Assembly: GCA_964620475.1 (NCBI GenBank)
Contig: CAZUJN010000003.1
Coordinates: forward strand, 5,647-69,646
Origin: an uncultured Candidatus Saccharibacteria bacterium
GTDB lineage: Bacteria; Patescibacteriota; Minisyncoccia; Phycocordibacterales; CAIZLB01
Length of the DNA stretch: 64,000 bases
Direction: 5' to 3'
Below, one piece after another: positions 7,491-55,823 of this stretch. Numbering within the stretch: position 1 is the stretch's first letter; every line of letters starts with the position of its first letter. The position numbers and the translations under genes were made by a program. The notes below the pieces were generated by a model. The model did no database searches, was not told where the DNA came from, and was given only the letters and a program-made list of their open reading frames with translations.

Positions 7491-7504
7491 AGTTATATTT
7501 TAGT

Positions 7505-8566
7505 TTAAAATATTTTTTTAGTAAATATATTTAATTCATTTGTTAATAATTTACTCATCATATATACATCATTTTTGAAATTATCAGCCAATATTAAACC
7601 CAGAGTATAATAGGCATCTTCATCCAAGGTGTATATATTTATCTTTACGTCTTTAACTATGTTTTCCATATCTATAGAGTCTACAAAATTTCTTATTTGT
7701 ATTTTCATGAATTCAAGATTTAGATTTATTTGAATATTTATCTTTTCCTGAACCTCTGAATTTAAATCTGGCCATATATTATCTAGACTTTTCTCCAATT
7801 TATTAACATTCAAGGACTTTGACTTAAGTATTTTATCTAACATAATATCATCTATATGAAGAGCTTCTTTGATCTTTGTTTTTACATTTACACAACCACA
7901 GGGTATAAAAAGGGTTGAAACAATGCGACCACCGTGAACATATATCAAATCAATACTTTGATCTTCTATAATAATTCTAAGTTCATTACTCTCTTTATTA
8001 TCTCTGTTTAACTCATTTACATATGAATATATAGAATCTATTTTTATATTATGTAGATGGAAAATTGTCTCTAAAGTATTTTGTAATTTATTTAAAAAAT
8101 TTGTGGAAGAAAATATACTTAAATATTGTAAATGCAAAAATCTGGCTTTTTGATTATTCAAACTCTTAACACTATAACCGTTTAAGGAAATATTAAATAT
8201 ATCATTTTTAACAAGACTTAAATTATCATGTTGCTTGTGAACTATCATCTTTTCTATCATACGTTGATCAATGGTCTGATCTTTTTCAAAATCTTTTTCA
8301 AGATTAATAATCTCATATATACTCCAAGGATTTGTTAAAATAACCTTAATATCTTTGATATTTTTATGATTATTTTTAAAAATATCTGTCTTTATAAAAT
8401 CCTGACATATATCTTTACAAACAAAAACAACCCTATTTTCATAATCATCGTGGGATTCGTCTAATATATGAGAAAATTTCTGTGTACCTAAAATAGTGTA
8501 TGTATCATTATCAAATGAATACATACTTATTGCATACGGTCTGATTAAGAAAACTATTTGCATCAA
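7505..8566 (-). CDS. Hypothetical protein
   Basis: 353-aa ORF in an operon-like arrangement with the neighbouring gene; no motif recognised. Confidence 0.55.
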   Translation of the reverse strand: MMQIVFLIRPYAISMYSFDNDTYTILGTQKFSHILDESHDDYENRVVFVCKDICQDFIKTDIFKNNHKNIKDIKVILTNPWSIYEIINLEKDFEKDQTIDQRMIEKMIVHKQHDNLSLVKNDIFNISLNGYSVKSLNNQKARFLHLQYLSIFSSTNFLNKLQNTLETIFHLHNIKIDSIYSYVNELNRDNKESNELRIIIEDQSIDLIYVHGGRIVSTLFIPCGCVNVKTKIKEALHIDDIMLDKILKSKSLNVNKLEKSLDNIWPDLNSEVQEKINIQINLNLEFMKIQIRNFVDSIDMENIVKDVKINIYTLDEDAYYTLGLILADNFKNDVYMMSKLLTNELNIFTKKIF

Positions 8567-20514: not shown

Positions 20515-21801
20515 ATGAGTAAAAAATTAAGCTGGACAACAACCCAAAAAACAATAAACGAATTAATCCCTCAAAAGATTAATCCCAGAACAATTACAGA
20601 AAAACAAATTTCCGATCTTACTAGAAGCTTGAAGAAGTATAACCTAGTAGAGATACCTGCTATAGACTTAGACGGGACAATACTGGCTGGTCACCAAAGG
20701 ATCAAAGTGATGAAGATACTCGGACGAGGTGATGAACTTATAGATGTCCGCATGCCAAATCGTAAATTAACAGAGCAGGAGTCAAATGAATACCTAATAG
20801 CTTCGAACAAACTCGGCGGAGACTGGGATTATGATCTGTTAAAGACATTTGAATTCGACACTCTTGAGTTTGCAGGATTCGACAAGATAGAACTTACTAA
20901 TATGTGGGATGGAGATAAGAAAGCTGAAGATGATGAATTTATCATAGAGAAAGAATTGAAAGAAATAAAGGTTCCAAAAACAAAGATTGGGGATATTATT
21001 AAACTTGGCAAGCATAAGATTATTTGTGGCGATTCCACTAAACAAGAAACACTCACAAGGCTTTTGGGTAATGAGAAGGTGTCAATGATTTATTCGGATC
21101 CAGTGTATAACATAAACGTGAACTATGGTGGTGGTATTGGAGGTCAACAAAATTATGGTGGTGATGTAAACGACTCAAGAACATTTGATGAGTACAGGAA
21201 GTTTTTAAAAAACAGTATCGAGTGTGCGTTGGCGGTATCCAAACAGCATACTCATATATTTTACTGGTGCGACCAGATATATATCGGAGTGGTGCAAGAT
21301 ATTTATAGATCATTAGGTATAGAGAATAAAAGAGTATGTCTATGGATAAAGAATAATCAAAACCCTGTCCCTACTGTAGCGTTTAATAAAGTGTATGAAC
21401 CAGTGGTTTATGGAGTTCGGGGAAAACCACATCTTACAAAAACCATCCAGAATCTAAATGAGGTGATGAACAAAGAACTAACCACAGGTAACAACCTACT
21501 GGAAGAAATAAATGACATATGGATAGCAAAAAGGCTTTCCTCAAAAGATTATGAACATGCAACATCTAAACCAATAGAACTTCATGAAAAAGCTATAAGA
21601 AGATGTAGTAAGATGGGTGATATTATCCTAGATAGTTTTCTTGGCTCTGGAAGCACATTGATTGCAGGAGAAGCTCTGGGTCGAAGAGTTTATGGGTGTG
21701 AACTTGAGCCAGTATTTTGTGATCTTATAATCCGTCGATACGAAAAACTTACTGGCACTAAAGCAGTGATAGAACACCATGAAGAAAAACAAGGTCTATA
21801 A
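20515..21801 (+). CDS. ParB-like nuclease domain fused to an N4/N6 DNA methyltransferase (phage-type orphan methylase)
   Basis: N-terminal ParB/Srx fold (LAGHQRIKVMK). DPVYNI lies at the position of the catalytic DPPY; C-terminal SAM motif DSFLGSGST (beta-class order). Confidence 0.8.
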   Translation: MSKKLSWTTTQKTINELIPQKINPRTITEKQISDLTRSLKKYNLVEIPAIDLDGTILAGHQRIKVMKILGRGDELIDVRMPNRKLTEQESNEYLIASNKLGGDWDYDLLKTFEFDTLEFAGFDKIELTNMWDGDKKAEDDEFIIEKELKEIKVPKTKIGDIIKLGKHKIICGDSTKQETLTRLLGNEKVSMIYSDPVYNINVNYGGGIGGQQNYGGDVNDSRTFDEYRKFLKNSIECALAVSKQHTHIFYWCDQIYIGVVQDIYRSLGIENKRVCLWIKNNQNPVPTVAFNKVYEPVVYGVRGKPHLTKTIQNLNEVMNKELTTGNNLLEEINDIWIAKRLSSKDYEHATSKPIELHEKAIRRCSKMGDIILDSFLGSGSTLIAGEALGRRVYGCELEPVFCDLIIRRYEKLTGTKAVIEHHEEKQGL

Positions 21802-22178: not shown

Positions 22179-22637
22179 TTACGACCTAACCTTATCTTTC
22201 AATTCATCAATTCTCTTCTTTACATTATATGGAGATTCGATATTTTTGAGTACAATCTCTAAACTACCAGATCCTGCTGTGTTTATAGCAATAGCACCTG
22301 AATGGCTTATCACTCTATCAAAAAAAGGTTCTCTAACATGAACATCGGTTATTTTCTGATAATCAATACTTGTTGTATTTGTAGATAGCCAACCTTTGTG
22401 TATTAAAATTCTTTTGTTAGTAAGTGCATAAACATTTGCAACTTTTTGGTAAAAACGAAAATTAAATAGAGCAATAAGAAATACAATTATTCCCATACCG
22501 AATGCTGGTAATAAAAATACACTCACTATACCCCAGATTATTAATTGTACTTTTAAGTATCTTCTACCTAGAGAAAACTCCAATTCTACTTTTTCGTCTG
22601 CATTTAGGGTTTTATCCCAGATTTTTTCATTTGTCAT
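22179..22637 (-). CDS. Bacterial PH-domain (bPH_2, YdbS/YdbT-like) membrane protein
   Basis: Two TMs followed by ALTNKRILIHKGWLSTNTTSIDYQKITDVHVREPFFDR. Confidence 0.6.
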   Translation of the reverse strand: MTNEKIWDKTLNADEKVELEFSLGRRYLKVQLIIWGIVSVFLLPAFGMGIIVFLIALFNFRFYQKVANVYALTNKRILIHKGWLSTNTTSIDYQKITDVHVREPFFDRVISHSGAIAINTAGSGSLEIVLKNIESPYNVKKRIDELKDKVRS

Positions 22638-22989
22638 AATTTTGCTTGATCGGCTTTAAAATTATTTGATAATAATGATGTGTTTTCTGTTGTATACAAA
22701 AAGCCCATCACGGGTAAGAGCCGAAGCTCTTCGTACCAGTTTCCCGATACGGCGATCAAGCAAAACCCCATGACGGGTTCTTTACACTTGATCGACTTTA
22801 GACCATATCCTTTAAAGTTAATTAAAGGGGTTAGGTCACAATTTGGTTGTAATTCCATAATACTTTATTTCAAAGTATTAGTCTATATTATATCGCTGAT
22901 TATAGCTTTTGCTAAGCTATTACGACCATGTAATAAAACCGCTGTTTTGCATAGCTATGCACCTGTAATGGTTGCGACACAATTGATAT

Positions 22990-24261
22990 ATGCAAGACAC
23001 AGAACTTAAATATTGCTTATACGCACGTAAATCAACCGAGGGGGATGAAAAACAAGCTTTATCAATAGACTCTCAGATAAAAGAAATGTTACAGATTGCA
23101 GAACGTGAAAACCTAAAAATTATCGAGATCAGAAAAGAATCACACTCAGCGAAGGAATCTAGTCAAAGACCAGTATTTGAAGAAATTGTTAAAGATATAG
23201 ATGGTGGTATTTTTAACTCAATAATAACTTGGGCACCTGATAGACTTTCTCGTAATGCAGGGGACCTTGGAAAATTAGTAGATAGAATGGATCAAAAAAA
23301 ATTAATTCAGATTAAAACTTTTGGACAAAATTTCACAAACTCTCCAAGTGATAAATTCCTATTAATGATTTTATGTTCTCAAGCAAAGCTTGAAAATGAT
23401 AATAAGAGTATCAATGTGAAGCGAGGTATGAGAACTCGTTGTGAGATGGGTTTATGGCCAGCACAACCACCCACAGGCTATAGAAAAGTAAATGATAGAA
23501 CTGCTAAGTGTGAAGTAGAGATTGATCCAGATAGATACAACACCATAAGACAAATATTTGAAAAAATTGCATATGAAAAGTGGAGCGTGTCTAAAGTTCA
23601 CGCATGGTTAAGATATGATATTAATTTCAAAACACAACGTGGATATAACTTAAGTATTGGAAATGTTTTTAAAATAATTAATAACACTTTTTACTATGGT
23701 AGATTTGAATTTCCTCAAGGAAGTGGTATTTGGTATGAAGGTATACATAAACCAATAATAACAAAAGAATTATTTGACGAGACACGAAGTGCTGTGAAAT
23801 CTCAAGTTATAAAATCACAAGGTAAAGAATTTGCTTTTACTAGAATTATGAAGTGTGGGGTGTGCGGATCTGGAATTACCGCTGATGAGAAGTTTAAGAA
23901 GATAAAGCATGGTGGAGTTAACAGATATGTATATTACAGATGCACAAAAGCAAAAGATAGGAATTGTAAAAATCCTGCTTTAAACGAAACTGAATTAATA
24001 GAATCTTTTATTAGTATGATTAATAAACTTAATATCAACAAAGTTAAACTTACAACAAAACTTGATATCGAGATACAAAAGTTCAAGAAGTTGCAAGCAA
24101 TGTTTTTAGGTAGAAAGAAAACAGAGAAAATAGAATCTATAGATCTTAAGGATTATATGAAATTTGTACTCAAGGAAGGCTCTATTTTAGAGCAAAGGGC
24201 TGTGTTGGAGTGTATCGAAAGTGAATTATTTATGAATAATAAAAAGATAAGAACTGATTAA
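22990..24261 (+). CDS. Large serine recombinase (resolvase/integrase family with zinc ribbon)
   Basis: YARKSTEGDEKQALSIDSQ catalytic region, DRLSRN, CGVCGSG...YYRC zinc ribbon, C-terminal coiled coil. Confidence 0.85.
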   Translation: MQDTELKYCLYARKSTEGDEKQALSIDSQIKEMLQIAERENLKIIEIRKESHSAKESSQRPVFEEIVKDIDGGIFNSIITWAPDRLSRNAGDLGKLVDRMDQKKLIQIKTFGQNFTNSPSDKFLLMILCSQAKLENDNKSINVKRGMRTRCEMGLWPAQPPTGYRKVNDRTAKCEVEIDPDRYNTIRQIFEKIAYEKWSVSKVHAWLRYDINFKTQRGYNLSIGNVFKIINNTFYYGRFEFPQGSGIWYEGIHKPIITKELFDETRSAVKSQVIKSQGKEFAFTRIMKCGVCGSGITADEKFKKIKHGGVNRYVYYRCTKAKDRNCKNPALNETELIESFISMINKLNINKVKLTTKLDIEIQKFKKLQAMFLGRKKTEKIESIDLKDYMKFVLKEGSILEQRAVLECIESELFMNNKKIRTD

Positions 24262-24262
24262 C

Positions 24263-26482
24263 TTAATTAATACCAAAGGTATTATAATGATCTATATCGA
24301 CACTCTTAATTACATCAAAATAATTTTTAATTCTCTGTTTACAGCCCTGTAAGACTGCAATATCATACTTTTCAAGACCTAAAAATTCATGTGATCCATG
24401 ATTAATGAAACGATTCATAACCTTCTCTTCTTGACCTACTTCCTGTACTATAATATCTTTTTGTGCAGGGTCTGTTTTTTTTAGTCTAATATCTTTATAG
24501 TTTGTATACAGTTGTTTTAGTTTGCTTTTTAAATCTCCATGACCATACTTAAAATGTAGAAAAGTTTCAATTGATCGACGAAGTAAATTGGCTGCCAAAA
24601 TTGCATCATCTAAACTCGTACTATCTTTTATATCATTAAGTTTAGTAATCGCATACAAATAGTCCGATCTATAGTTTTTAAGACTTTCATCAAGTATTTT
24701 TATTGATGACCCGGCATTATTCATACTTATTTGATAAAAGTTGACTAAATCATATTTAATTGTTCCGTCAGGCTTTTTATAATCCTGAAGTAGGTGTCCA
24801 AAAAAATCTAAATTGTGTGTAAAAATAAAATATTGCCGATTATCATCCTGCTCAATCTCACCAGACAGAATAGCATATACTTGGAAAAGTGAATCAGAAT
24901 CTAGACTGGATACAGGATCATCAATAACAATAATTGCATCATTATCTAATTTATCATCTTCATCATTAATTGAAAGTAAAAAATAAGCAAGCGCTAAGAA
25001 ATTTCTTTCACCTTCACTCAAATTGTCTAAACTACACTTTACGCTGTCTCTTTTTAAAACGTATCCAACTTCTTCAGTGGAATCATCAAGCTCTATTTTT
25101 TTATATGGAAAAGTTGAAGCCAACAATCTATTTATTCGATCAGCTGGAATTTGAACATTTTTTGCTTCTTTTTTAAGATCTTTTAATTCTTGTTCAAGTT
25201 TTTTTATTTCATTGCTCTTATCTAATCTACTTTTTAAGCAATCTGTGTAGACTTTCTTTTTATCAAGATATTTTAAATATTCAATGGCAACATAATGAGT
25301 TTCAACGGACCATGCTGTTTTATTGACATCAAAGACCTCTTCATCAATAAAGAGATTATTAAACTCACAAGAATCTATCCCTTTAATTTTATTTTCTTTT
25401 TTGATTTTTATTTTTTCTTGTAAAGTGATAAAAAAAGTTTTCAAACTCTTTTTCTCTGAAGTGTAAAAAAATTCGCAGGAAATAATCTCATTTAAAGCAT
25501 CTTCAGTGCTTTTACTTAAAATGTCTAATATATTATTTAATTCAATAACATCATTAGAAAAATTTTTTAATAATTCATCTCTGTTTTGAATTTTCGAACC
25601 ACAAAAAAGACAGGTATCGAGCTTCTCGTCCTCATTATAAAGTTTATGTATATCTACACCCTTTCTAACCCAATCTTCTTCTTTACCTCCGTCAGGATAA
25701 CTACTCATTCTCATGGATTTTTCATAAACTGGAGTAAATTTTAAATATTTATTTATTTTTTCTAGATTTTCAATTACCCAATAATTCCATTTCTTGAGAA
25801 TTTTATATTCTCTTTCTTTTTCAGATAAATTTGAAAGTGTCGCTAATAGTTTTTTTAATTTATCGTCGTCTTTTATAAAGTTTTCTAATTGATTACCTCT
25901 ATTAATCTGTTTTGACAGCCAGTCCACCCTTACCTCAAAAGAACTTTTATCATATCCTGTGAAATTTCCAACTCCTCCAGTAGCAGGATCTTTTTTAATA
26001 TGACCAATACCAGGTAGCAATTTAATGAATTTAGAAGCATTTTGAGATATATCTTCATACTCATTCTTGCACTGAGGAAGTTTAAGAAGCTCGTCTCTAG
26101 CAATATCTAATTCTTTTTGTTTGTTAGAGAAATCAACCTCTGTGGCACCTATTGCAACGACATATTTTAAATGAGTTTGATCTATAATCTTTTTTATATA
26201 ATCTTCATTAAAAACACGAATTTTACTTTCATAACCAGAAAGTTCGTCTTGTTTTTTTGCACCCGTATCAAATCCTACAGTAAAATTTGCTCCACTTATT
26301 TTACTTCCACTCTCAATTATCCCTTTCTCATAAGATTGTAGAATTCTAGATATAATCGTTTTTCCACACCCGTTCCAACCTAATAAAATATTTACTTTAC
26401 TATGAAATTCTGGAATAGTTGTGTCCCATTGAAAGTTTTTAAATGTACCGAAATTAATTGATTGTATCTTTTTAATTTTCAT
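24263..26482 (-). CDS. RloC-like ABC-type ATPase with zinc-hook coiled-coil insertion and putative C-terminal HEPN-like anticodon-nuclease domain
   Basis: Walker A GWNGCGKT; ABC signature LSEGERNFLALAYFL; Walker B IVIDDPVSSLD. The coiled-coil insert has CLFCG (CxxC); the C-terminus has RRSIETFLH (Rx6H). It overlaps the upstream methyltransferase gene by 11 nt. Confidence 0.55.
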   Translation of the reverse strand: MKIKKIQSINFGTFKNFQWDTTIPEFHSKVNILLGWNGCGKTIISRILQSYEKGIIESGSKISGANFTVGFDTGAKKQDELSGYESKIRVFNEDYIKKIIDQTHLKYVVAIGATEVDFSNKQKELDIARDELLKLPQCKNEYEDISQNASKFIKLLPGIGHIKKDPATGGVGNFTGYDKSSFEVRVDWLSKQINRGNQLENFIKDDDKLKKLLATLSNLSEKEREYKILKKWNYWVIENLEKINKYLKFTPVYEKSMRMSSYPDGGKEEDWVRKGVDIHKLYNEDEKLDTCLFCGSKIQNRDELLKNFSNDVIELNNILDILSKSTEDALNEIISCEFFYTSEKKSLKTFFITLQEKIKIKKENKIKGIDSCEFNNLFIDEEVFDVNKTAWSVETHYVAIEYLKYLDKKKVYTDCLKSRLDKSNEIKKLEQELKDLKKEAKNVQIPADRINRLLASTFPYKKIELDDSTEEVGYVLKRDSVKCSLDNLSEGERNFLALAYFLLSINDEDDKLDNDAIIVIDDPVSSLDSDSLFQVYAILSGEIEQDDNRQYFIFTHNLDFFGHLLQDYKKPDGTIKYDLVNFYQISMNNAGSSIKILDESLKNYRSDYLYAITKLNDIKDSTSLDDAILAANLLRRSIETFLHFKYGHGDLKSKLKQLYTNYKDIRLKKTDPAQKDIIVQEVGQEEKVMNRFINHGSHEFLGLEKYDIAVLQGCKQRIKNYFDVIKSVDIDHYNTFGIN

Positions 26483-27461
26483 GACTCTTCAAATCTTTCA
26501 TTATTTTTTTTGCTAAAAAGTGTGCAAGGTTAACAGGTACAGCATTACCGATCATCTTATAGCCATTTGCCACATCATTATATTTAAAAATAAATGTATC
26601 AGGAAATGTCTGAACTCTTGCACATTCACGGACAGATAAACGACGATATAAATGTTCTTTTCCAGGAACAAATATTCTTTTATTTTGTTCAATAAATTTC
26701 ATTTTTGGAGCTTGTGGGTGGAGTGGAGCATGACGACCACCAGCCTGAATGGTAAAGGAAGGTTCATCCCAAGATCTAACACGATTTCTTGACATATATA
26801 TAGTCGAAAAACCACCAATCATGTACTCATGATTTGGAATTTTCAATTTATCACCATTAGTTTTATTTTTATCTTTTGCAGGTTTTGCTAATCGTAAATC
26901 GTAAATAGCATCCTTTAGAACAGGTTTATGCTTTTGAGGCTCAGGAAATTCAAATTTCTTTTTTAATTTTTTATGATATCCGACAATAATTACACGAAGT
27001 CTATCTTCAGGAACACCGTAATCATTTGCGTTTAATAATTTCCAAGAAATCACATACCCCGCACTCTCAAATGATTTAATTATGTTATTAAATGCATCTG
27101 CATGTTTTGGATGAAGTATACCTGAAACATTTTCTGCTAAAAAGAATTTTGGTTGTTTTTCTTTTAATAATCTAACATAATCAAAAAACAACTGACCTCT
27201 CTTATCATCTATACCACGACCAGCCCCGGCTTCACTCCAACTCTGACATGGTGGACCTCCAATAATTCCATCTACATCGGGTATATCTGAGTGGGATACG
27301 TTAACAATACTTCGTCGATCAAGTTTTGTTTTAGGAAAATTATGTTCAAAAGTCTCCCAAATAGTTGAATCATATTCATTAGCCCATACAACATGAAAAC
27401 CAGCCTTTTCAAAACCTAGATCGAGTCCTCCTGCACCAGTGAATAATGAAGCTATTTTCAT
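26472..27461 (-). CDS. C5-cytosine DNA methyltransferase
   Basis: Motif I FTGAGGLDLGF, motif IV GGPPCQSWS, motif VI ENV. Confidence 0.9.
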   Translation of the reverse strand: MKIASLFTGAGGLDLGFEKAGFHVVWANEYDSTIWETFEHNFPKTKLDRRSIVNVSHSDIPDVDGIIGGPPCQSWSEAGAGRGIDDKRGQLFFDYVRLLKEKQPKFFLAENVSGILHPKHADAFNNIIKSFESAGYVISWKLLNANDYGVPEDRLRVIIVGYHKKLKKKFEFPEPQKHKPVLKDAIYDLRLAKPAKDKNKTNGDKLKIPNHEYMIGGFSTIYMSRNRVRSWDEPSFTIQAGGRHAPLHPQAPKMKFIEQNKRIFVPGKEHLYRRLSVRECARVQTFPDTFIFKYNDVANGYKMIGNAVPVNLAHFLAKKIMKDLKSHEN

Positions 27462-27465
27462 AAAT

Positions 27466-28446
27466 TTAATCTTTACTTATATTTAGTGTATTTTTAAATA
27501 ATGTTTTTGGAGCTTTTATAAGGTTTATATCAAACTTTAAAGAAGACTCCACCCTAGAACTTGCATTGTGTATCCTAAATGAAAGTACCCAGTCATTGTT
27601 CATTGTAACAATAGCAGTTGTAATACTATCATTTTTAAAATCAACATCTAAAATTTCTGTTGGGAGCGGAACTTTAGGTGTTTTGTATTTTGGTTGAATA
27701 TCTTTAAAAGGAAGATTTAGTGTTCCATTAATATTATAAGCATGTATCTCAATTGAGTTTTTACCTTTTATAACTTTATAAAAATCTTTATTTCCAACTA
27801 AATACGCGACTAGATTAGATGCAACTTTTACAGGATCTTTTTCATATAGATCTTTTAATTCTTTTATAAATGCTTTCAAAATTGGAGTATATACAGAAGT
27901 GTGGTAGTCACCTAGTTCACTCCATTTTTTCTTAGCACCACTTTCTTTTCTAATATTTTCAAGATTTTGAAAAATAGGTGTTATTGTATTAAAATATTCT
28001 TTAGAATTTTTTATTCCTAACCACTTATCTCCAAAATCTATATTTGAAGAGAGCCTAGAGTGTTTAACTGCTTTATGATTATTTTTTGCAGATACCCCAA
28101 TTTCCCATTTTTGGAGGAGACGAATAGCTATGACATCACGGACATCTCCAGATTTACCATGATTATCTGATAAGATTTCAAGTTGTAAAATATCATCCTT
28201 ACCGATATCATTTGAAAGTCTAGGCTCTATATCAATTAAGAAATTTACAGCAAAACTTGCCGACAATAAATATTCACTTTTTTCACTATTTGTAACACTG
28301 TCAAAACAACTTTTAGCAACACTAAAAGCAGAATTTGTAATAATCTCTATATTTGTCTTATCCTTAAGCTTCTCTTCAAAGGAAATAAGAAGAGCGTATT
28401 CGAAGGATTTTCCTGTTGTCATCTGTTTTGAATTTGTACTTGCCAT
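27466..28446 (-). CDS. Type II restriction endonuclease, apparently HaeIII/NgoPII-like family (GGCC-type); partner of the m5C methylase
   Basis: Stops 4 nt before the methyltransferase start. Pattern GDVRDVIAIR...WEIGVSAKNNHKAVKHSRLS...KWSEL...FYKVI...LSFRIHNAS...SLKFDI recalled as HaeIII-family; this needs a database check. Confidence 0.5.
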   Translation of the reverse strand: MASTNSKQMTTGKSFEYALLISFEEKLKDKTNIEIITNSAFSVAKSCFDSVTNSEKSEYLLSASFAVNFLIDIEPRLSNDIGKDDILQLEILSDNHGKSGDVRDVIAIRLLQKWEIGVSAKNNHKAVKHSRLSSNIDFGDKWLGIKNSKEYFNTITPIFQNLENIRKESGAKKKWSELGDYHTSVYTPILKAFIKELKDLYEKDPVKVASNLVAYLVGNKDFYKVIKGKNSIEIHAYNINGTLNLPFKDIQPKYKTPKVPLPTEILDVDFKNDSITTAIVTMNNDWVLSFRIHNASSRVESSLKFDINLIKAPKTLFKNTLNISKD

Positions 28447-28546: not shown

Positions 28547-28621
28547 TGGTGACCCCACGGAGAGTCGAACTCCGGTTAACAGATTGAGAACCTGCTGTCC
28601 TAACCACTAGACGATGGGGCC
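28547..28621 (-). tRNA. tRNA-Glu (anticodon CUC), CCA encoded
   Basis: GGCCCCAUCGUCUAGUGGUUAGGAC...; anticodon loop UUCUCAA; T-arm CGGAGUUCGACUCUCCG; acceptor pairs; 3' CCA. Confidence 0.75.
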
Positions 28622-37667: not shown

Positions 37668-37823
37668 AAAAAATGGGTCGCCACGCTGTCATCACGCGCG
37701 GCAACCCTGTAGGACACCCTTCTTTCCCCCCGGATTTCCCAGATGTCCACGTTTTTTATACTACAACCACCGACCCCCAATGTCAACTTCTCTATACCCT
37801 TTACAAATACTACAATTATATTC

Positions 37824-38249
37824 ATGATTAAATTCATACAAAAAAACATAATAAATATTATATTAATTCAAGTTACTGTGGCTATAATAGGTAGTCTATA
37901 TTTTAGTGATATAAAAGGATATGAACCATGTGTTCTCTGTTGGTATCAAAGAATATGCATGTATGCTTTGTTCCCTATTATAATTATCGCCGGGATAAGA
38001 AAAGAGAAAAAAATATACCAATATATATTACCTATTTCTATATTAGGTTGGATTATAGCCTTGTATCACAATTTACTTTATACAGGTTTTATAAAAATAG
38101 AATTTTGTACTACTGGAATATCATGTACTACAAAATACGTAGAATATCTAGGATTTATAACAATACCTTTTATGTCTTTTTTGGGTTTTACTTTTATAAT
38201 CATACTCGCATTATTAGACAGATATTATTCAATTAAATTAAATAAATAA
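37824..38249 (+). CDS. Disulfide bond formation protein B (BdbC/DsbB family)
   Basis: GYEPCVLCWYQRICMY closely matches the B. subtilis BdbC CxxC region; 4 TM. Confidence 0.7.
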   Translation: MIKFIQKNIINIILIQVTVAIIGSLYFSDIKGYEPCVLCWYQRICMYALFPIIIIAGIRKEKKIYQYILPISILGWIIALYHNLLYTGFIKIEFCTTGISCTTKYVEYLGFITIPFMSFLGFTFIIILALLDRYYSIKLNK

Positions 38250-38951
38250 ATGAGAACAGAAACAAAAATAATCACAGCCATATTAGCATTTACAGCCATA
38301 GTCATATTTGGTGGTATATTAGTAGTTAAAAATAACTTTGCTAATCAAAATCAACCTAAAGATTATTCAAAATACATAGAAACAGGGCTAAATTTAGATA
38401 AAACTAAAATAGCTAGAGAATATAACCCTAAAATAACAGGATCTGGAAAAACTACAGCAACTACAACAATACATATAACCGAATTTTTAGATTATGAATG
38501 TCCAGCATGTGCTACAAATGGAGAAATAATCACAAAGGCTTTACTCGCAACATATGGTCCTAATATAACAATCACAAGAAAGATATTCCCTGTTCACGGT
38601 CAAGCATCTATAGATGTAGCTTCTCTAGTACTAGCATCTCAAGTTCTTGGAGGTGAAGCGTATCAAAAAATCCATACAAAAGTATATGAAGAATTCAATA
38701 ATTGGTCTATACTTGGCAAAAAAGATAAAGATGAATATTTGAAAAAACTAATCACAGGCCTAGGATATGATTATGAAAAAATATTGACTGAAAGTAAAAA
38801 TGAAAAGTATATAAAACAAATAGAACAAGATAAACAAGATGCAGTAGATCTGGGTATAAAAGCCACACCGTCATTTGTTATAGAAAATCACACACGTATC
38901 ACAGGAGGCCTACCTCTAGAAGAAATATCAAAATACATTGACGCTAAATAG
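38250..38951 (+). CDS. Thiol:disulfide oxidoreductase DsbA/BdbD family
   Basis: N-terminal TM anchor; thioredoxin fold with CPAC active site. Confidence 0.75.
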   Translation: MRTETKIITAILAFTAIVIFGGILVVKNNFANQNQPKDYSKYIETGLNLDKTKIAREYNPKITGSGKTTATTTIHITEFLDYECPACATNGEIITKALLATYGPNITITRKIFPVHGQASIDVASLVLASQVLGGEAYQKIHTKVYEEFNNWSILGKKDKDEYLKKLITGLGYDYEKILTESKNEKYIKQIEQDKQDAVDLGIKATPSFVIENHTRITGGLPLEEISKYIDAK

Positions 38952-49632: not shown

Positions 49633-50085
49633 TTATCTGGTAACAGATATGTTGCCCTGTATTTCACCTATAGCAGACACTGTTAAGCGACCGTTATTAA
49701 TGACTAGGTTATACCCAGTATTATAATCGTCTTCACTATTATAATAAGTATTATTACCTTTTGGATCATATGGTAACTTAGATATATAATCCGGCACTAA
49801 ACATGAAGATATATCTTGACCCGTAGAGCTGATAACCTCTAAGACCCCTTCAGTTAAAGTCTTAACTGATCCATCACAAAATAGGTTACCCTCATGATCT
49901 GCTATATTCTGACCCAATGCATTTAATATGGTGTTAACATTAGCAACACGCTGTGAATCCCTAGCTTGTTTAAACTGCCTATTAGGATTGACGGCCACCA
50001 AAACAACAGTGGCCAATATCCCTATAATACCTATAACCACTAATATCTCTATAAGGGTAAACCCTTTATTTTTTTGTATTTTCAT
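49633..50085 (-). CDS. Type IV pilin (prepilin-type N-terminal cleavage/methylation domain)
   Basis: KGFTLIEILVVIGIIGILA class III signal peptide. Confidence 0.75.
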   Translation of the reverse strand: MKIQKNKGFTLIEILVVIGIIGILATVVLVAVNPNRQFKQARDSQRVANVNTILNALGQNIADHEGNLFCDGSVKTLTEGVLEVISSTGQDISSCLVPDYISKLPYDPKGNNTYYNSEDDYNTGYNLVINNGRLTVSAIGEIQGNISVTR

Positions 50086-50138: not shown

Positions 50139-50549
50139 TTAAATTAATTCCCAAGGTTTTTTAAAGTCCAAAAAACCGTTTTTAAACTGATATTTAAATA
50201 ATCTATGATCAATCTTAAAATCAACTTCGTGAATATTTATACCTTCATAAAAATATTTGATATCTGAAATATGACAAATATAATCGTCTTGAAAATCAAA
50301 ATTCCTATTAAAACTATAGCTATTATTAATAAAATCTATATTAAAATCAGATTTTATTAGATTATTCATAAAAACATCAGCACATATAGAAAGATTTTGT
50401 ACATATGATCTATTTTTATAAAAATCCTTTTTTACATCTATATAATTAAATACCCTCTCAGAGCTAAGATATGTATAAAATATTAAAGTTATAGATATAC
50501 TCAATATTAAAAATAAAGCTATAAAACCATCCTGTTTAACTTTCTTCAT
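50139..50549 (-). CDS. Hypothetical protein with N-terminal TM
   Basis: 136 aa, adjacent to the pilin gene; could be a minor pilin-associated protein. Confidence 0.45.
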   Translation of the reverse strand: MKKVKQDGFIALFLILSISITLIFYTYLSSERVFNYIDVKKDFYKNRSYVQNLSICADVFMNNLIKSDFNIDFINNSYSFNRNFDFQDDYICHISDIKYFYEGINIHEVDFKIDHRLFKYQFKNGFLDFKKPWELI

Positions 50550-50671
50550 ACAATTTAAGTTAACATATTGATTTTAAATTCTTTATTAAGAAAGAATAAA
50601 ATTTTCATAAAGTTAATAATGCTATTGATTTATTAATCAAAAAATAGTATATTATATCTCATACAAACATT

Positions 50672-50744
50672 GGGCCCGTAGCTTAGTTGGTAGAGCGCCT
50701 CATTTGCACTGAGGAGGTCAGGAGTTCGAATCCCCTCGGGTCCA
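50672..50744 (+). tRNA. tRNA-Ala (UGC)
   Basis: GGGCCCGUAGCUUAGUUGGUAGAGC...; loop UUUGCAC; GUUCGAAUC T-loop. Confidence 0.8.
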
Positions 50745-50770
50745 CTAGCCTTATTGAGATTTGGTATTAA

Positions 50771-50843
50771 CCGCCTATAGCTCAGTCGGTAGAGCAGTCG
50801 CCTCTTAAGCGAACGGTCATAGGTTCGAATCCTATTAGGCGGA
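50771..50843 (+). tRNA. tRNA-Lys (CUU)
   Basis: Loop CUCUUAA; T-arm AUAGGUUCGAAUCCUAU; acceptor CCGCCUA/UAGGCGG (C1-G72). Confidence 0.65.
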
Positions 50844-50858
50844 CAAGATTGAAAAAAT

Positions 50859-50943
50859 GGGCAAGTGGCGGAATTGGTATACGCGCTAGTCTTAGGAACT
50901 AGTTCTTCACGGATTGAGGGTTCGAGTCCCTCCTTGCCCACCA
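50859..50943 (+). tRNA. tRNA-Leu (UAG), long variable arm, CCA encoded
   Basis: GGGCAAGUGGCGGAAUUGGUA...; loop CUUAGGA; GGGUUCGAGUCCC; CCA present. Confidence 0.8.
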
Positions 50944-50947
50944 GAAC

Positions 50948-50980
50948 ATAAAACACCAGATACATAGTATTTGGTGTTTT
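50948..50980 (+). terminator. Terminator after the tRNA cluster
   Basis: AAACACCAgatacatagtatTTGGTGTTTT. Confidence 0.45.
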
Positions 50981-51080: not shown

Positions 51081-51575
51081 TTATAGTCCGAAATGCGGCA
51101 CATCTACACCTTTCGTATCTATTTGTGTACCCCGCTCAATTAATATAAGATATTTTTCTCTACTTTTATTTTCGTTGGGAAAAAACCACATTGGATGACT
51201 GGAGTGAGCATAAAACTGACATAAACTATCCTTGCCCGCAGCTTCATGTTCATTCACCCAGTAACTTTTATGATCCTTAAATAAATTTCTGTTTTTAAAA
51301 TATATAGAATAAATCTCTGGCAAAGTTAATAATCTATATCCAGGAAACATATGTAATTTATCCAAAATATGACTTGATTCTATTGGTTCGTCAAAAACCT
51401 TTAGATAGTCCAAGCTTTCTAAACCTATTTCATCTTCTCTTTCATTTGTTATATCAAAAGGCATCATACCTTCTTCCATGTTTTCCATATTCATATATAT
51501 ATTATATACGTTTTTTGAGAAAAATGTAGATATTATACTTGACTTTATCTTATATATATGATATACTATATACAT
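51081..51575 (-). CDS. Hypothetical protein
   Basis: 164-aa ORF. Confidence 0.5.
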   Translation of the reverse strand: MYIVYHIYKIKSSIISTFFSKNVYNIYMNMENMEEGMMPFDITNEREDEIGLESLDYLKVFDEPIESSHILDKLHMFPGYRLLTLPEIYSIYFKNRNLFKDHKSYWVNEHEAAGKDSLCQFYAHSSHPMWFFPNENKSREKYLILIERGTQIDTKGVDVPHFGL

Positions 51576-51627: not shown

Positions 51628-52395
51628 ATGAGACGCTTCATTATACCTACTATCTATCACCTTGTCCTTTTCGGAACCCTGCTGTTGCTGTGTCTGTGGC
51701 TGGACCAATTCACCCTGATGCTCAAAGGAGGACCATTCAATGTCCTCGGACGCATCGGATGGATCATCAGGTTCATCCTGTGGACATCACTTGTCGTCAC
51801 ACTGATCTTCTCGGTGGCACAAGAGTTCCCTGTACACAGACTCCGTACTGTGTGTGCCTGGTGTTTCTCCATCTTGGCCACGCTCTGCATTGGCTGGGAA
51901 TTAAAGCTGACCCCCTCATCGGGATCAGGAAGTTCCGGTACAGGTGATGGTTCGAACATCACTACCGGATACAGCTTCCCCGGCTGGCAGCCTGCAGGCA
52001 TGTCAACTGAAGGATGGCAATGGTTTAAACCCAACGCTGTCGATCAGGCGACGTCCGAAGTGGACATCACCCGTAAAGTGGTAACATATCGTATCTGGAA
52101 CGATGCGGTGTGGGAACTCAGGTTGAAAGACGGGTCAACTATATCCCTCTTCAACAAGGCTGATGAACGTACAAAGTTCAAGGCCGGTCCCGAGGGGTTT
52201 TCCAAAACCCCTATGACAGATCAAGAGTTCAAGGACTTGATAAATAACCAAGCGGTGGCAATCAAGTTCAAACCCTTGCCGGGTAAAACCCTCGACATGA
52301 AGATCGGGGTCAGGGATACAAAATGCCCTGATAGACGGAATAGGAGTGCCGTCAACGTCAAGACTCCTAAAAAGCCGCGACCTTATCACAGGTAG
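51628..52395 (+). CDS. Membrane-anchored hypothetical protein encoded by a strongly GC-rich (about 58% GC) gene
   Basis: 3 N-terminal TMs, a G/S linker, and a ~150-aa ectodomain. Its composition is foreign relative to the ~30% GC flanks. Confidence 0.6.
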   Translation: MRRFIIPTIYHLVLFGTLLLLCLWLDQFTLMLKGGPFNVLGRIGWIIRFILWTSLVVTLIFSVAQEFPVHRLRTVCAWCFSILATLCIGWELKLTPSSGSGSSGTGDGSNITTGYSFPGWQPAGMSTEGWQWFKPNAVDQATSEVDITRKVVTYRIWNDAVWELRLKDGSTISLFNKADERTKFKAGPEGFSKTPMTDQEFKDLINNQAVAIKFKPLPGKTLDMKIGVRDTKCPDRRNRSAVNVKTPKKPRPYHR

Positions 52396-52409: not shown

Positions 52410-52706
52410 TTAATTATTTATATCGATAACCCTCTCAACATTTGTTTTAGTTCTCTCACCTGCTGGAACTGTGTTTAACAAAAACCTAAATATCCCGAAA
52501 ACCGAAATCATAATAAACATACCAACTATACCCCAAAGCATATGATTAGTACCTGTTTTTATTTGCTGAGGATTTGATCTAGATTTCCATATATATTCAA
52601 AGACACCATAAAGAAATACAACTAACGCAACACCGAAAGCTAATAATATCAGCGGATTTATTATTATAGTATTTATGTTTGATAATATTTGATAGACTTT
52701 TTGCAT
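52410..52706 (-). CDS. VirB2/TrbC-like small two-helix membrane protein, paralog 1
   Basis: LVVFLYGVFEYIWKSRS...MLWGIVGMFIMISVFGIF hairpin topology. Confidence 0.6.
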   Translation of the reverse strand: MQKVYQILSNINTIIINPLILLAFGVALVVFLYGVFEYIWKSRSNPQQIKTGTNHMLWGIVGMFIMISVFGIFRFLLNTVPAGERTKTNVERVIDINN

Positions 52707-52770
52707 AAATATAATTATATAATAAAAAAAACCCTGAAGCCATAAGATCTCAGGATTTTTTTAAATTTAT

Positions 52771-53154
52771 CTAGCCTTGTCTAGGTAGAGATGGAGAAGA
52801 TGGGATGTTTGAATTATCTAAGTTAAAAGTATTTCTCAATAAATTAACCAAGCCCCAAACTGATACCATAACGAATAGTGCTACTATACCCCATAGTATG
52901 AATTTACCAGCTTCACCTCTATCACCTCCGCCCCAGAAGAATCTTTTAACGATACCATATAGGAATAATACCAATGCTAATATTATCAATATAGGTATAA
53001 CAGTTGAAGATAATGTCACTATCCAACCTAAGAAGTTACCCACTGATCTACCAGCAGCATTTGTTTGATCATCTAGACCACCTGGCATAGGAGCCCCAGC
53101 AGCTAAAACTAAACCTGGTGCAAATGTTACTAATAATGATAGAATTTTTTTCAT
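52771..53154 (-). CDS. VirB2/TrbC-like pilin-like protein, paralog 2
   Basis: Signal peptide; LVLFLYGIVKRFFWGGGDRGEAGKFILWGIVALFVMVSVWGLV. Confidence 0.6.
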   Translation of the reverse strand: MKKILSLLVTFAPGLVLAAGAPMPGGLDDQTNAAGRSVGNFLGWIVTLSSTVIPILIILALVLFLYGIVKRFFWGGGDRGEAGKFILWGIVALFVMVSVWGLVNLLRNTFNLDNSNIPSSPSLPRQG

Positions 53155-53203
53155 ATTTGTAATTTTATGATTTTTATTAATTTATAATTATATTTATATT
53201 ATA

Positions 53204-53740
53204 CTATTTTAATTGTGGAATAGTCAAAGGACTTCCATTAAAAAATGTATTTTGTAAAAATTGAACCAGACCCCAAACTGATACCATAACGAATAGTGCT
53301 ACTATACCCCAAAACATAAACTTTCTGGCTTGCTCTCTAGCTTCTGGCTTTTGACCATCCACAAAAGCTAATTTGAAAACCCCAAACAAAAATACAACGA
53401 GGGAGGCACTAATGATCAAATATATGACATTTGTCATTAAACCAGTTGTCCAATCTACAAAACCCGCTAAAGATAATTTAGGTACACCTATATCACTTTT
53501 CCAATTATTTGAGTTATTATTACCAGAACCAGGAAAACCCGATCCTGAACCAGAACCTGATTGATTTGATGTACCCTGATTACCACTTTGATTCGAAGTA
53601 CCTTGATTGCCTGATTGATCGGAAGTGCCTTGATCTTGTGTACTTGAATTAAGACCTGAACCTGTTGCTGTTGTAGCAGCATTAACATTAAAACCAACCA
53701 TGGCTGTTAATATTAATGTTGATATTATAATTTTTTTCAT
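53204..53740 (-). CDS. VirB2/TrbC-like pilin-like protein, paralog 3, with a low-complexity (SGNQGTSNQ)x3 region
   Basis: Signal peptide, a Q/G/S/N repeat region, then LVVFLFGVFKLAFVDGQKPEAREQARKFMFWGIVALFVMVSVWGLV. The C-terminal helix is near-identical to paralog 2. Confidence 0.6.
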   Translation of the reverse strand: MKKIIISTLILTAMVGFNVNAATTATGSGLNSSTQDQGTSDQSGNQGTSNQSGNQGTSNQSGSGSGSGFPGSGNNNSNNWKSDIGVPKLSLAGFVDWTTGLMTNVIYLIISASLVVFLFGVFKLAFVDGQKPEAREQARKFMFWGIVALFVMVSVWGLVQFLQNTFFNGSPLTIPQLK

Positions 53741-53756
53741 ATTTTATATTTTTATT

Positions 53757-54113
53757 TTAATTACCTTTAAATACTTCTTTAACGGTATCACCTATACCAT
53801 AAGCTATAACTTCAGCACATAACACAAGTGCAGCACCTATCATACCCCAAAATAGTGCATTTCTAGCTTTCTTAATCTTTTCAGGATCACCTCTAGCTAT
53901 CACAAACATAAGACCAGCATACATAAGATATAGAACAGTGATCATTATAACTATAGTCTGTGCTATATCCACAACATTCATAAATATAGTCTTAAGATCT
54001 GAACCTTCAGCACCTTGACCAAGCGGTGATGTTAAACCAGTAGATGTATTAGTTGCAGCTAAAACAAGTGTTGGTATTATTGATAATATTATTGCTGTAA
54101 TTTTTTTCTTCAT
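53757..54113 (-). CDS. VirB2/TrbC-like pilin-like protein, paralog 4
   Basis: Signal peptide; ITVLYLMYAGLMFVIARGDPEKIKKARNALFWGMIGAALVL. Confidence 0.6.
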   Translation of the reverse strand: MKKKITAIILSIIPTLVLAATNTSTGLTSPLGQGAEGSDLKTIFMNVVDIAQTIVIMITVLYLMYAGLMFVIARGDPEKIKKARNALFWGMIGAALVLCAEVIAYGIGDTVKEVFKGN

Positions 54114-54122
54114 ATATTTATT

Positions 54123-54482
54123 TTATCTTTTTGGTAATGCACCTTGTCTAAATTCATCAGTTACATTTAACACATTTAATGCAAAATCTACTATATAATA
54201 TGAACCTACTAATAATATCAATCCGATTATTATACCGAAAAATATTCTTTTGGCTTTACTACGAGAATCAGCAGAGCCCTGACCTGTAACTAAAACATAT
54301 CCTGCATAAAATATCATGATAATAGCTATGAAAACACCTAACAACAAAAGGTTTTGTAATATTTCATTTATAATAGGACCCACCTCTTTCCAACCACAAC
54401 CTCCTTTTAATAATATCTCTTTTCTTTGAGCATCGTTGGTTGCGTTACCAAAACATAAACTTAAGCTTTCGAATAATTGCAT
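54123..54482 (-). CDS. VirB2/TrbC-like pilin-like protein, paralog 5
   Basis: IIMIFYAGYVLVTGQGSADSRSKAKRIFFGIIIGLILLV. Confidence 0.55.
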   Translation of the reverse strand: MQLFESLSLCFGNATNDAQRKEILLKGGCGWKEVGPIINEILQNLLLLGVFIAIIMIFYAGYVLVTGQGSADSRSKAKRIFFGIIIGLILLVGSYYIVDFALNVLNVTDEFRQGALPKR

Positions 54483-54491
54483 ATACTTATT

Positions 54492-55823
54492 TTATCTGAT
54501 ATTAAATGCTCTGTCTAATCTATCTGATGCATCTATAATTGAATCTGTTATATTTTGAGTTCCTGATACTATAGAAAATATCATTTTTGATAATATATCA
54601 TCTGTAGTTTTATAATCTGGGTCTAACCATGTCTTAGCAAATATAGCTGAATTATTTATAACAGCTATATCAGCATTTGATTTAGCATCTTTTGATGTTG
54701 ATAACACATCACGTCTAGTAGAAGCTAACCCTAAAGCACTAGATAGATATTGATTGAATTGGTAATTACCGAAGAAAGTCATCACATTTTGATATGTTGC
54801 ATTTGGATTTTTGGATGTTATCAAAAAACCCATAGCATACACCTTACCTTTGGTTACTTTCTTATTATCATAAGCCTGAGGAATAGGTGCTATAGCAAAA
54901 TTTAGATTTGGATTACGTGTTCTAATATATTCAATCTCAGAACCTGGACCAAAATAAGTTGCAAGATCGCCTGACAAGAAAGATTCTCTCGATGATTTAA
55001 AAGATTTATTCCATGTGTATGATGATTTAGTTGGATTAGCAAATTCAGTATAATACAACAAAACATCTCTACTTAACTTACTTGCTGATTCTGAATTTGA
55101 TGTATTTTGAGATCTATTCAAACCAGATTGATATGTGGCAACATTTGCATCATATTGACTAAGATTAACACCCACCTGAGATAACATTGCAAAAATTATA
55201 TCTTTGGCATGATTTATATTGTCATATTCACCTAAAGCGGCGTAGGCCTTATCTATTATTCCATTATCTCTTCTTCTTACAACTTTTTCTGTTAAATTTG
55301 CAAATTCTGTCCAATCTTTTGGGGGTGTTAGAACATTTTCTGATGTAAACATATCTATGTTGTAATACATCACGAGTGGATCTATTATTAGAGGAAAGGC
55401 CTTTACACCATCTTGTACGGTAAATATATTGCCTATATCTAAATATGTTGACCTAAAAGATTCTGCTGAAACAGTGTCATTTGGTATAGTTAACAATCTT
55501 TTCATTTGACTATAATACATATAATCAGGAAATATTATTGCATCAGGTCCTTTACCTTCTGCTATGGCCTTAAGTAATACATTTTCGAATCCTTCTTCAG
55601 GGTATTCTACATATGTAAATGAAGGATCTTTACCTTGTATTCTAAAAGGTTGTAATGCTTCATCTATACTAGACTGAGGTAAGACACCCCAGATAACAGC
55701 CTGATATGAAGCTGATCCTTGTTTAACTTTACCTGTAGCAAAGAAAGCTATACCAATAATACCCATGACTAAGAACACAGCGATCAATACTATCTGAAAT
55801 ATATTTAGATCTTTACTAGTCAT
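54492..55823 (-). CDS. Extracellular solute-binding protein (ABC transporter SBP, family 1-like)
   Basis: N-terminal TM/lipo-anchor; 440-aa periplasmic-binding-fold-sized protein. Confidence 0.55.
   Translation of the reverse strand: MTSKDLNIFQIVLIAVFLVMGIIGIAFFATGKVKQGSASYQAVIWGVLPQSSIDEALQPFRIQGKDPSFTYVEYPEEGFENVLLKAIAEGKGPDAIIFPDYMYYSQMKRLLTIPNDTVSAESFRSTYLDIGNIFTVQDGVKAFPLIIDPLVMYYNIDMFTSENVLTPPKDWTEFANLTEKVVRRRDNGIIDKAYAALGEYDNINHAKDIIFAMLSQVGVNLSQYDANVATYQSGLNRSQNTSNSESASKLSRDVLLYYTEFANPTKSSYTWNKSFKSSRESFLSGDLATYFGPGSEIEYIRTRNPNLNFAIAPIPQAYDNKKVTKGKVYAMGFLITSKNPNATYQNVMTFFGNYQFNQYLSSALGLASTRRDVLSTSKDAKSNADIAVINNSAIFAKTWLDPDYKTTDDILSKMIFSIVSGTQNITDSIIDASDRLDRAFNIR

Follow-up and report, generated by a model that had tools for sequence, protein, structure and literature searches.

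Five small genes stand in a row on the minus strand of contig CAZUJN010000003.1, at positions 52410-54482 of the 64-kb stretch of DNA analysed here (the window), and directly upstream of them lies a gene for a MalE-fold protein resembling solute-binding proteins. An earlier note had read the five as tandem paralogs of the pilins VirB2 and TrbC of type IV secretion systems (T4SSs). The locus therefore raises the question of what these proteins are, with which machinery they would assemble, and what ties them to a sugar-binding fold. Their membership of the Pfam family PF18895 (T4SS_pilin) is established at the level of sequence. We consider it probable, at roughly 0.6, that they are the pilin genes of the chromosomal T4SS typical of Patescibacteria, the assembly of a pilus itself being a step that we infer.

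The five genes and their family

The five open reading frames (ORFs) lie exactly where the earlier note had placed five consecutive minus-strand genes of 98-178 residues. Numbered P1 to P5 by increasing coordinate, they encode proteins of 98, 127, 178, 118 and 119 residues. From P5, at array position 1, towards P1, the genes are spaced by 9, 16, 49 and 64 nucleotides, and 9 nucleotides separate the upstream gene from P5. P5 (54123-54482) has no canonical signal peptide, its N-terminus (MQLFESLSLCFGNA) lacking basic residues and having a hydrophobic stretch that is both short and weak; it carries a cysteine pair, C10 and C29 ('GGCGW'), before the hairpin. P4 (53757-54113, position 2) has a Sec signal peptide, a conserved 'PPLG..GSDLKTIF' motif and a conserved C-terminal 'GIGDTVKEVFKG'. 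In P3 (53204-53740, position 3), a Sec signal peptide is followed by about 70 low-complexity residues rich in S, G, N and Q, and then by the hairpin; a tandem repeat with a period of 27 nucleotides and three copies (53555-53634) lies inside the low-complexity region. P2 (52771-53154, position 4) comprises a Sec signal peptide, the hairpin, whose second helix is that of P3, and a proline-rich C-terminal tail. P1 (52410-52706, position 5) is devoid of a signal peptide; its two hydrophobic helices are followed by a C-terminal tail that is charged and conserved.

A canonical Sec signal peptide is thus found in P2, P3 and P4 only, so that of the four signal peptides announced earlier three stand and that of P5 does not. 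Likewise, the motifs [LF][YF]G and [LF]WG[IM][IV], described as common to all five proteins, are strict in P1-P3, while P4 (MYAG, FWGMI) and P5 (FYAG, FFGII) deviate. The near-identity reported for the C-terminal helix of P2 and P3 is borne out by 16 residues, WGIVALFVMVSVWGLV, identical in both, and about 41 nucleotides of this segment are also identical in the DNA (repeat D1; counted from its two copies).

Signals for expression are faint. No recognisable Shine-Dalgarno sequence occurs in the 25 nucleotides before the start codons of the six genes formed by the array and its upstream neighbour (52410-55823), where the DNA is purely A/T-rich, and the promoter scan gave no enrichment over shuffled sequences, being uninformative in AT-rich DNA. 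A terminator-like hairpin followed by a T-run on the minus strand (52375-52391), reported by a consensus scan only, lies 19 nucleotides past the P1 stop codon and possibly marks the end of the transcription unit; four such sites in the region against 2.4 expected from shuffles make this weak evidence.

All five proteins match PF18895, with 26.7, 23.4, 33.3, 45.1 and 28.6 bits for P1 to P5. P1, P3, P4 and P5 reach the gathering cut-off of 26.6 bits, P4 being the best match, and P2 stays below it. The classical family PF04956 (TrbC/VirB2; cut-off 27.9 bits) returns P5 at 27.3 bits (E-value 4.3e-6), just under the cut-off, and no match for P1, P2, P3 or P4. In NCBIfam, the top match for all five is the 'Mbov_0395 pilin-like conjugal transfer protein' (NF045849; E-values 4e-7 to 4e-4), spanning almost the whole 80-position model at 19.9-29.6 bits, all below its cut-off of 40 bits. 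Among 150 array ORFs of related loci (described below), 145 match PF18895 at an E-value of at most 1e-3 (best 1e-21) and 36 match PF04956 at the same threshold (best 5.9e-10). We also compared the paralog classes by hhalign with an alignment of six annotated VirB2/TrbC plasmid proteins, which had been fetched by means of a VirB2 sequence. The P5 class aligned on the mature hairpin (Agrobacterium VirB2 residues 57-117) with 56% probability and an E-value of 1e-4, and P5 appears to be the paralog closest to classical TrbC/VirB2. Homology of the array to VirB2 and TrbC is plausible from these comparisons; it lies at the detection limit for the copies of this genome and is clearer in relatives, since PF04956 reaches an E-value of 5.9e-10 there. 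The assignment made in the earlier note, VirB2/TrbC-like T4SS pilin paralogs, is therefore upheld by the five PF18895 matches and the P5 score on PF04956. A holin-type or bacteriocin-type family, which that note had named beforehand as the outcome that would speak against it, did not appear: none of the five has a holin, phage or defence family match. PADLOC gave no match, and the sole PHROG match is a weak one of P2 to a family of unknown function (E-value 4e-4). The class III signal of type IV pilins (PF07963, N_methyl) is found in none of the five either, its only match in the window being the gene at 49633-50085.

According to hydropathy analysis, each protein possesses two strong hydrophobic segments in its C-terminal half, separated by a short loop rich in K, R and G, and any further hydrophobic segments are N-terminal, either signal-peptide-like or flanking. 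The AlphaFold model of P4 is a helical hairpin (residues 40-72 and 77-116) with a predicted local distance difference test score (pLDDT) of 81-90. The C-terminal two-helix hairpin with a short polar or basic loop that characterises PF18895 is therefore present in all five, as judged by hydropathy and, for P4, also by AlphaFold.

When each paralog was compared by phmmer with the ORFs of the window translated in six frames, only other members of the array were matched, although no query reached all four of them. P1, P2 and P3 form a close subgroup (E-values 1e-9 to 1e-19), within which P2 and P3 are 46% identical (E-value 2e-19), whereas P4 and P5 are more distant, with E-values of 1e-3 to 1e-5 to the other members. 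The relatedness of the five goes far beyond chance.

The MalE-fold gene and the related loci

The gene upstream of P5 (54492-55823, minus strand) encodes 443 residues with one N-terminal transmembrane helix (residues 11-29) and is the first of a conserved six-gene unit. Its product scores above cut-off with SBP_bac_8 (64.2 bits, E-value 2.1e-17) and SBP_bac_1 (42.1 bits, 1.4e-10) of Pfam. The AlphaFold model has a mean pLDDT of 91, and a Foldseek search of the PDB reports maltodextrin-binding proteins (1fqa, MalE of T. maritima) with an E-value of 1e-19, TM-scores of 0.67-0.78 and 13-17% identity. It thus combines the two features of a MalE-like solute-binding protein, the two-lobe maltodextrin-binding fold and a match to the family hidden Markov models. 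Its subfamily counts 743 representatives at an E-value of at most 1e-30 and 2,442 at 0.001 or less in a library of 1.84 billion proteins clustered at 50% identity, and is both large and distinct. A Pfam scan of the window found no permease or ATPase gene of an ATP-binding cassette (ABC) transporter, and none occurs among the conserved neighbours in relatives.

Scanning metagenome contigs with the binding-protein alignment returned 80 loci, 78 of them at 32-37% identity to the query, which fall into 70 clusters at 90% identity; the median identity among these clusters is 40%. A pilin-like ORF starts within 120 nucleotides of the binding-protein stop codon at 63 of the 64 loci that extend at least 500 nucleotides downstream, with a 4-nucleotide overlap in 20; ORFs in the relatives were taken as the longest reading frame, so that exact gaps are approximate. 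Where at least 3 kb of downstream sequence is available (36 loci), exactly five pilin ORFs follow in 32 cases, four in two and six in two. The order of classes, P5, P4, a P2- or P3-like gene, P2 and P1, recurs across 34 non-redundant loci, and three distant Paceibacterota loci whose binding protein is about 30% identical display the same arrangement. Because the loci were picked by similarity of the binding protein, they show that the subfamily implies the array and not the reverse.

The five positions differ in character across these loci. The position-1 proteins of more distant relatives have a signal peptide in 24 of 30 cases, and the position-5 proteins of related loci lack one in 29 of 30. 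Position 1 varies from 101 to 743 residues, and some of its proteins (287-743 residues) display N-terminal Ig/FN3-like domains (DUF5018, Pur_ac_phosph_N, TSP1) with the T4SS_pilin hairpin at the extreme C-terminus; examples are encoded on contigs L059 (6980-9211), L090 (9289-10596) and L052 (1644-2909). About half of the position-3 proteins, from many of the loci L032-L105, have five hydrophobic segments in about 240 residues, which is consistent with two pilin hairpins fused in tandem, one such protein (P0021) having been inspected by eye. In that case, the number of pilin domains in such a five-gene array would be six.

The same five genes, in the same order and with similar sizes, occur in metagenome-assembled genomes (MAGs) whose upstream binding protein is 68-73% identical. 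Orthologs at the same position are 53-74% identical, as compared with 20-46% between paralogs; those of P4 are 59-99% identical according to the alignment tool and 60-99% by BLASTP. Each class keeps its own signature in the orthologs: the cysteine pair of P5, retained in eight orthologs, the 'PPLG..GSDLKTIF' motif and C-terminus of P4, the proline-rich tail of P2, and the missing signal peptide and charged tail of P1. The P3 orthologs measure 150-233 residues, with low-complexity repeats specific to each species. The paralogs are thus old, since orthologs are so much closer to each other than paralogs and each class has its signature, and these comparisons show ancient, differentiated paralogs with one-to-one positional orthologs in the fixed order P5-P4-P3-P2-P1.

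Between two strains about 97.6% identical over the locus, P3 (53204-53740, compared with positions 2973-3509 of contig L001) differs by 33 synonymous and 4 non-synonymous codons, P5 by none, and the 443-residue binding protein by 14. P3 is the most divergent gene of this strain pair at the nucleotide level, which suggests a recombination tract over it. Diversifying selection on P3 was considered and rejected, the strain differences being mostly synonymous; at 33 synonymous against 4 non-synonymous codons, P3 is rather under purifying selection.

One metagenome contig (L109, 2525-3076) encodes a 183-residue chimera (P0017) whose N-terminal part comes from P3 and whose C-terminal tail comes from P2 (corresponding window segments 52825-52921 and 53243-53339). 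The two are joined at the stretch of about 41 identical nucleotides, with the loss of one array gene. The chimera may represent a genuine deletion variant or a collapsed assembly; an artefact is conceivable because the variant occurs on a single contig with 2.5x coverage.

The unit belongs to a longer conserved order comprising an S1 protein, a metallo-beta-lactamase-fold protein, gyrA, an S-adenosylmethionine-dependent methyltransferase (absent in the window), the binding protein and the pilins, after which the downstream genes vary. The spacer between gyrA and the binding-protein gene measures 546-2083 nucleotides and tolerates inserted genes, as compared with the always tight junction between the binding protein and the first pilin. 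The other housekeeping genes of the window, whose GC content is about 32%, are secA, dnaK/grpE/dnaJ, topA, alaS, rpoA, ribosomal protein genes, parB and dprA. An identical array is found on a MAG contig labelled Candidatus Saccharibacteria, and close relatives are labelled Parcubacteria, Paceibacteria, Paceibacterota, Nomurabacteria or Patescibacteria group. We take the DNA to be a Patescibacteria chromosome, probably of Paceibacteria or Parcubacteria. The episymbiotic lifestyle that had been suggested for the organism fits a Patescibacteria genome.

Published arrays and possible roles

Tandem divergent VirB2-like pilin genes in Patescibacteria are already published (PMC12102498, PMC10633639), and the array is of this kind. 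A 2025 review finds the possible pilus of these monoderm bacteria remarkable, VirB2-like pilins being regarded as exceptional in a monoderm lineage (PMC12857230). In a 2025 survey by Quinonero-Coronel et al., 3,035 Patescibacteria genomes were searched with PF18895 and PF04956, and its passages on the arrays report 441 VirB2 arrays, spread over 383 assemblies and made up of 2-11 genes each, whose identity averages 25% and reaches 54% at most (PMC12102498). The same passages place pilin genes near virB4 in 1,135 of 1,948 assemblies and count the VirB4 of the clade in 2,407 Patescibacteria assemblies. The present five genes resemble those arrays in their tandem arrangement and low paralog identity (20-46%); the survey's passages on arrays do not mention a solute- or substrate-binding protein, one-to-one orthology or a fixed five-gene composition. 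Wang et al. (2023) described six PF18895 genes, SEML1_0014-0019, in Candidatus Southlakia epibionticum ML1 (Saccharimonadia), which are essential and lie inside a VirB4/VirB6/PrgI cluster (PMC10633639). Those genes also encode tandem, divergent, small PF18895 proteins (103-185 residues) on a Patescibacteria chromosome, some of which match PF04956 as well. However, they are embedded among genes for VirB6-like, PrgI and VirB4-like proteins and have no binding-protein gene, whereas the array of the window lies away from T4SS genes, after gyrA, and is joined to a MalE-like gene. In the literature searched, we found neither a paper linking a binding protein with these pilins nor a description of this variant, namely a fixed five-gene set of one-to-one orthologs joined to a MalE-fold partner and detached from virB4.

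The classical VirB2, TrbC and TraA proteins of the T-pilus, RP4 and F pili are likewise small pro-pilins with a signal peptide, a two-helix hydrophobic hairpin and a basic loop, but each is encoded by a single pilin gene in a virB, trb or tra operon of diderm bacteria. Here, four of the five proteins resemble them only at the limit of detection, and no VirB4 or mating-pair-formation operon surrounds the genes. The Mbov_0395/MMCAP2_0565 family protein of Mycoplasma integrative and conjugative elements is VirB2-like, too, and comes from a lineage that is wall-less or monoderm; it is, however, encoded singly on a mobile element and not as a chromosomal five-gene set. Type IV pili and type II secretion systems combine a major and four minor pilins or pseudopilins, a co-encoded, fixed set of five differentiated paralogs, some with extra domains. 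The likeness is an analogy only, as these proteins belong to an unrelated family (the class III signal being absent from the five) and rely on other assembly machinery.

How would the five genes then operate as T4SS pilin genes? Their products would reside in the cytoplasmic membrane, the basic loop on its inner side and the two termini on its outer side, and signal peptidase would cleave P2, P3 and P4. Such a topology fits the basic loops, the conserved cysteine pair before the hairpin, the DsbB/DsbA genes of the window and the N-terminal ectodomains of relatives. The variable N-terminal parts would face outward, with a disulfide loop in P5 (in relatives Ig-like domains of up to about 650 residues) and the low-complexity repeats in P3. 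A machine of the VirB4/VirB6/PrgI type, encoded elsewhere in the genome, would extract the pilins and build from them a pilus or conduit where the cell touches its host. The five would play distinct structural roles and would not be interchangeable antigenic variants, position 1 being a candidate tip or adhesin subunit. The partner resembling a binding protein would be co-expressed and would probably act with the filament or pilin platform, for example by capturing sugars from the host or by helping assembly; of all the steps, this one is the least secure.

Several observations weigh against a T4SS pilin role. The Pfam scan, which covered nearly all larger ORFs, found no VirB4, VirD4, VirB6 or PrgI family in the window, in agreement with the earlier note as regards VirB4 and VirD4, and no conserved neighbour of VirB4 size occurs within about 8 kb in the 80 related loci. 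The sequence covered comprises the window and an extension of about 4 kb (L21, DnaB). As no T4SS genes lie in the window or are conserved nearby, the array can be connected to a T4SS only through its family and through other lineages. In the hhalign comparison, the P5 class alone shows a moderate similarity to Agrobacterium-type VirB2; the E-values are 0.009 for P4 and 0.028 for P1, and P2 and P3 give nothing. Foldseek with the monomer model was non-specific (best E-value 0.55, no conjugative pilin among the top 50), and the family sequence profile searched against all PDB chains returned only chemokine receptors and cytochrome oxidase, spurious matches to membrane helices; both searches are uninformative because the fold is so simple. 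Furthermore, 35 of 35 loci have gyrA upstream, which makes it as constant as the binding protein; inherited gene order therefore accounts for part of the pattern, and conserved synteny alone is no proof of a functional tie. To our knowledge, filaments of Patescibacteria VirB2-like proteins have never been observed.

The alternative that best withstands these data, although we regard it as rather unlikely, is an envelope module independent of any T4SS. The five hairpins would form a hetero-oligomeric ring or pore, or a docking platform, together with the anchored MalE-like protein, and the module would take up or sense host-derived oligosaccharides in place of the missing ABC permease, a role we hold equally improbable. 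The tight joining of the binding-protein gene to the array at 63 of 64 loci speaks for it, as do the confident maltodextrin-binding fold, the large and distinct subfamily, and the lack of an ABC permease, ATPase or VirB4 gene in the window or conserved nearby; the fixed set of five also suggests a defined complex. However, the family is homologous to T4SS pilins, and the one genetically tested lineage has its essential array inside a T4SS cluster, without a binding-protein gene. Transport through VirB2-like hairpins without a T4SS has no known precedent, and the co-location with gyrA indicates that the synteny of the block is partly inherited.

The large domains at position 1 raise another possibility, that the hairpins do not polymerise and are membrane anchors only, which display variable N-terminal segments as surface adhesins. 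Relatives whose Ig/FN3/TSP1-like domains sit on a C-terminal pilin hairpin would suit such a role, and so would the long low-complexity extension of P3, which differs between species. Yet P1, P2 and P4 are almost devoid of an ectodomain, the hairpin itself is the most conserved part, and modular pilins with extra domains polymerise elsewhere, such as PilB of S. sanguinis according to passages of PMC8179133. We therefore judge this explanation improbable.

Recently amplified cassettes for antigenic or host-range variation, as proposed for the VirB2 paralogs of Bartonella and Anaplasma, would explain the identical 41 nucleotides or so of P2 and P3, the P3-P2 chimera and the divergence of P3 between strains. 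However, every paralog has a one-to-one positional ortholog, the classes persist at about 30% binding-protein identity, the chimeric contig has a coverage of only 2.5x, and the codon differences in P3 are those of purifying selection. The orthology pattern and the purifying selection largely exclude such cassettes, which we hold to be very unlikely. Least credible of all is the idea that the five have no kinship with pilins and are holins, bacteriocin immunity proteins or other small membrane proteins, matching the pilin model by hydrophobic composition: P1 and P5 do score near the Pfam cut-off and P2 below it, and the PDB profile search shows how easily unrelated membrane helices are matched, but P4 reaches 45 bits, relatives reach E-values of 1e-21 (PF18895) and 6e-10 (PF04956), no holin or PADLOC family is matched, and the context is one of housekeeping genes and not of a phage.

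Surroundings and significance

Two neighbouring features had been taken as parts of a repertoire of surface filaments. The gene at 49633-50085 encodes a genuine N_methyl type IV pilin; among 21 related loci, only 2 have such a gene downstream of the array, and its proximity is therefore incidental. The BdbC/BdbD pair is real, as a DsbB/DsbA pair (37743-38951), but lies about 14 kb from the array and not close to it; its relevance would seem to be confined to the conserved cysteines carried by several pilin classes. Between these features and the array, a cluster of tRNA-Ala, tRNA-Lys and tRNA-Leu genes (50672-50943, plus strand) overlaps an opposite-strand ORF of 110 residues (50633-50965) that is probably spurious. 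Further ORFs of 136-391 residues, at 51628-52395 (plus strand), 51081-51575, 50139-50549 and 6315-8566 (all three minus strand), have no match in Pfam, NCBIfam, PHROG or PADLOC; one of these is a 255-residue membrane protein, convergent with the end of the array.

Elsewhere in the window, the segment 20515-28621 looks like an integrated defence or mobile island adjoining tRNA-Glu (28547-28621), with a change of sign of the GC skew at 20-24 kb. This putative island comprises genes for an N6/N4 DNA methylase (20515-21801), a bacterial PH-domain protein (22179-22637), a large serine recombinase (22990-24261), an AAA_13 ATPase that matches the PADLOC candidate system PDC-S06 (24263-26482), and a C5 cytosine methylase with a HaeIII-type endonuclease (26472-28446). 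Just upstream of the serine recombinase gene, Rfam reports a full-length match to the LOOT RNA (RF03000) on the minus strand (22716-22837; 77 bits against a gathering threshold of 46.4).

That five pilin classes are conserved and not interchangeable speaks for a structured, heteromeric assembly and against antigenic variation. Were a five-subunit VirB2-type assembly with an adhesin-bearing position 1 confirmed, it would be the first heteromeric conjugative-type pilus. The constant MalE-like partner provides a testable lead towards an apparatus connected with sugar capture or pilus assembly; if, instead, the link to this partner reflects inherited synteny alone, the locus would be an ordinary member of a published class. 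A bolder proposal, which we consider doubtful, is that the T4SS pilin genes of a large Paceibacteria-type clade now belong to a stand-alone six-gene unit, whose binding protein physically works with the filament or platform by handing over oligosaccharides derived from the host or by priming assembly. The role of the Patescibacteria T4SS has been described as completely unknown (PMC11665869), even though it is essential in the one species tested (PMC10633639). If true, the stand-alone unit would tie this enigmatic and essential apparatus to nutrient acquisition.

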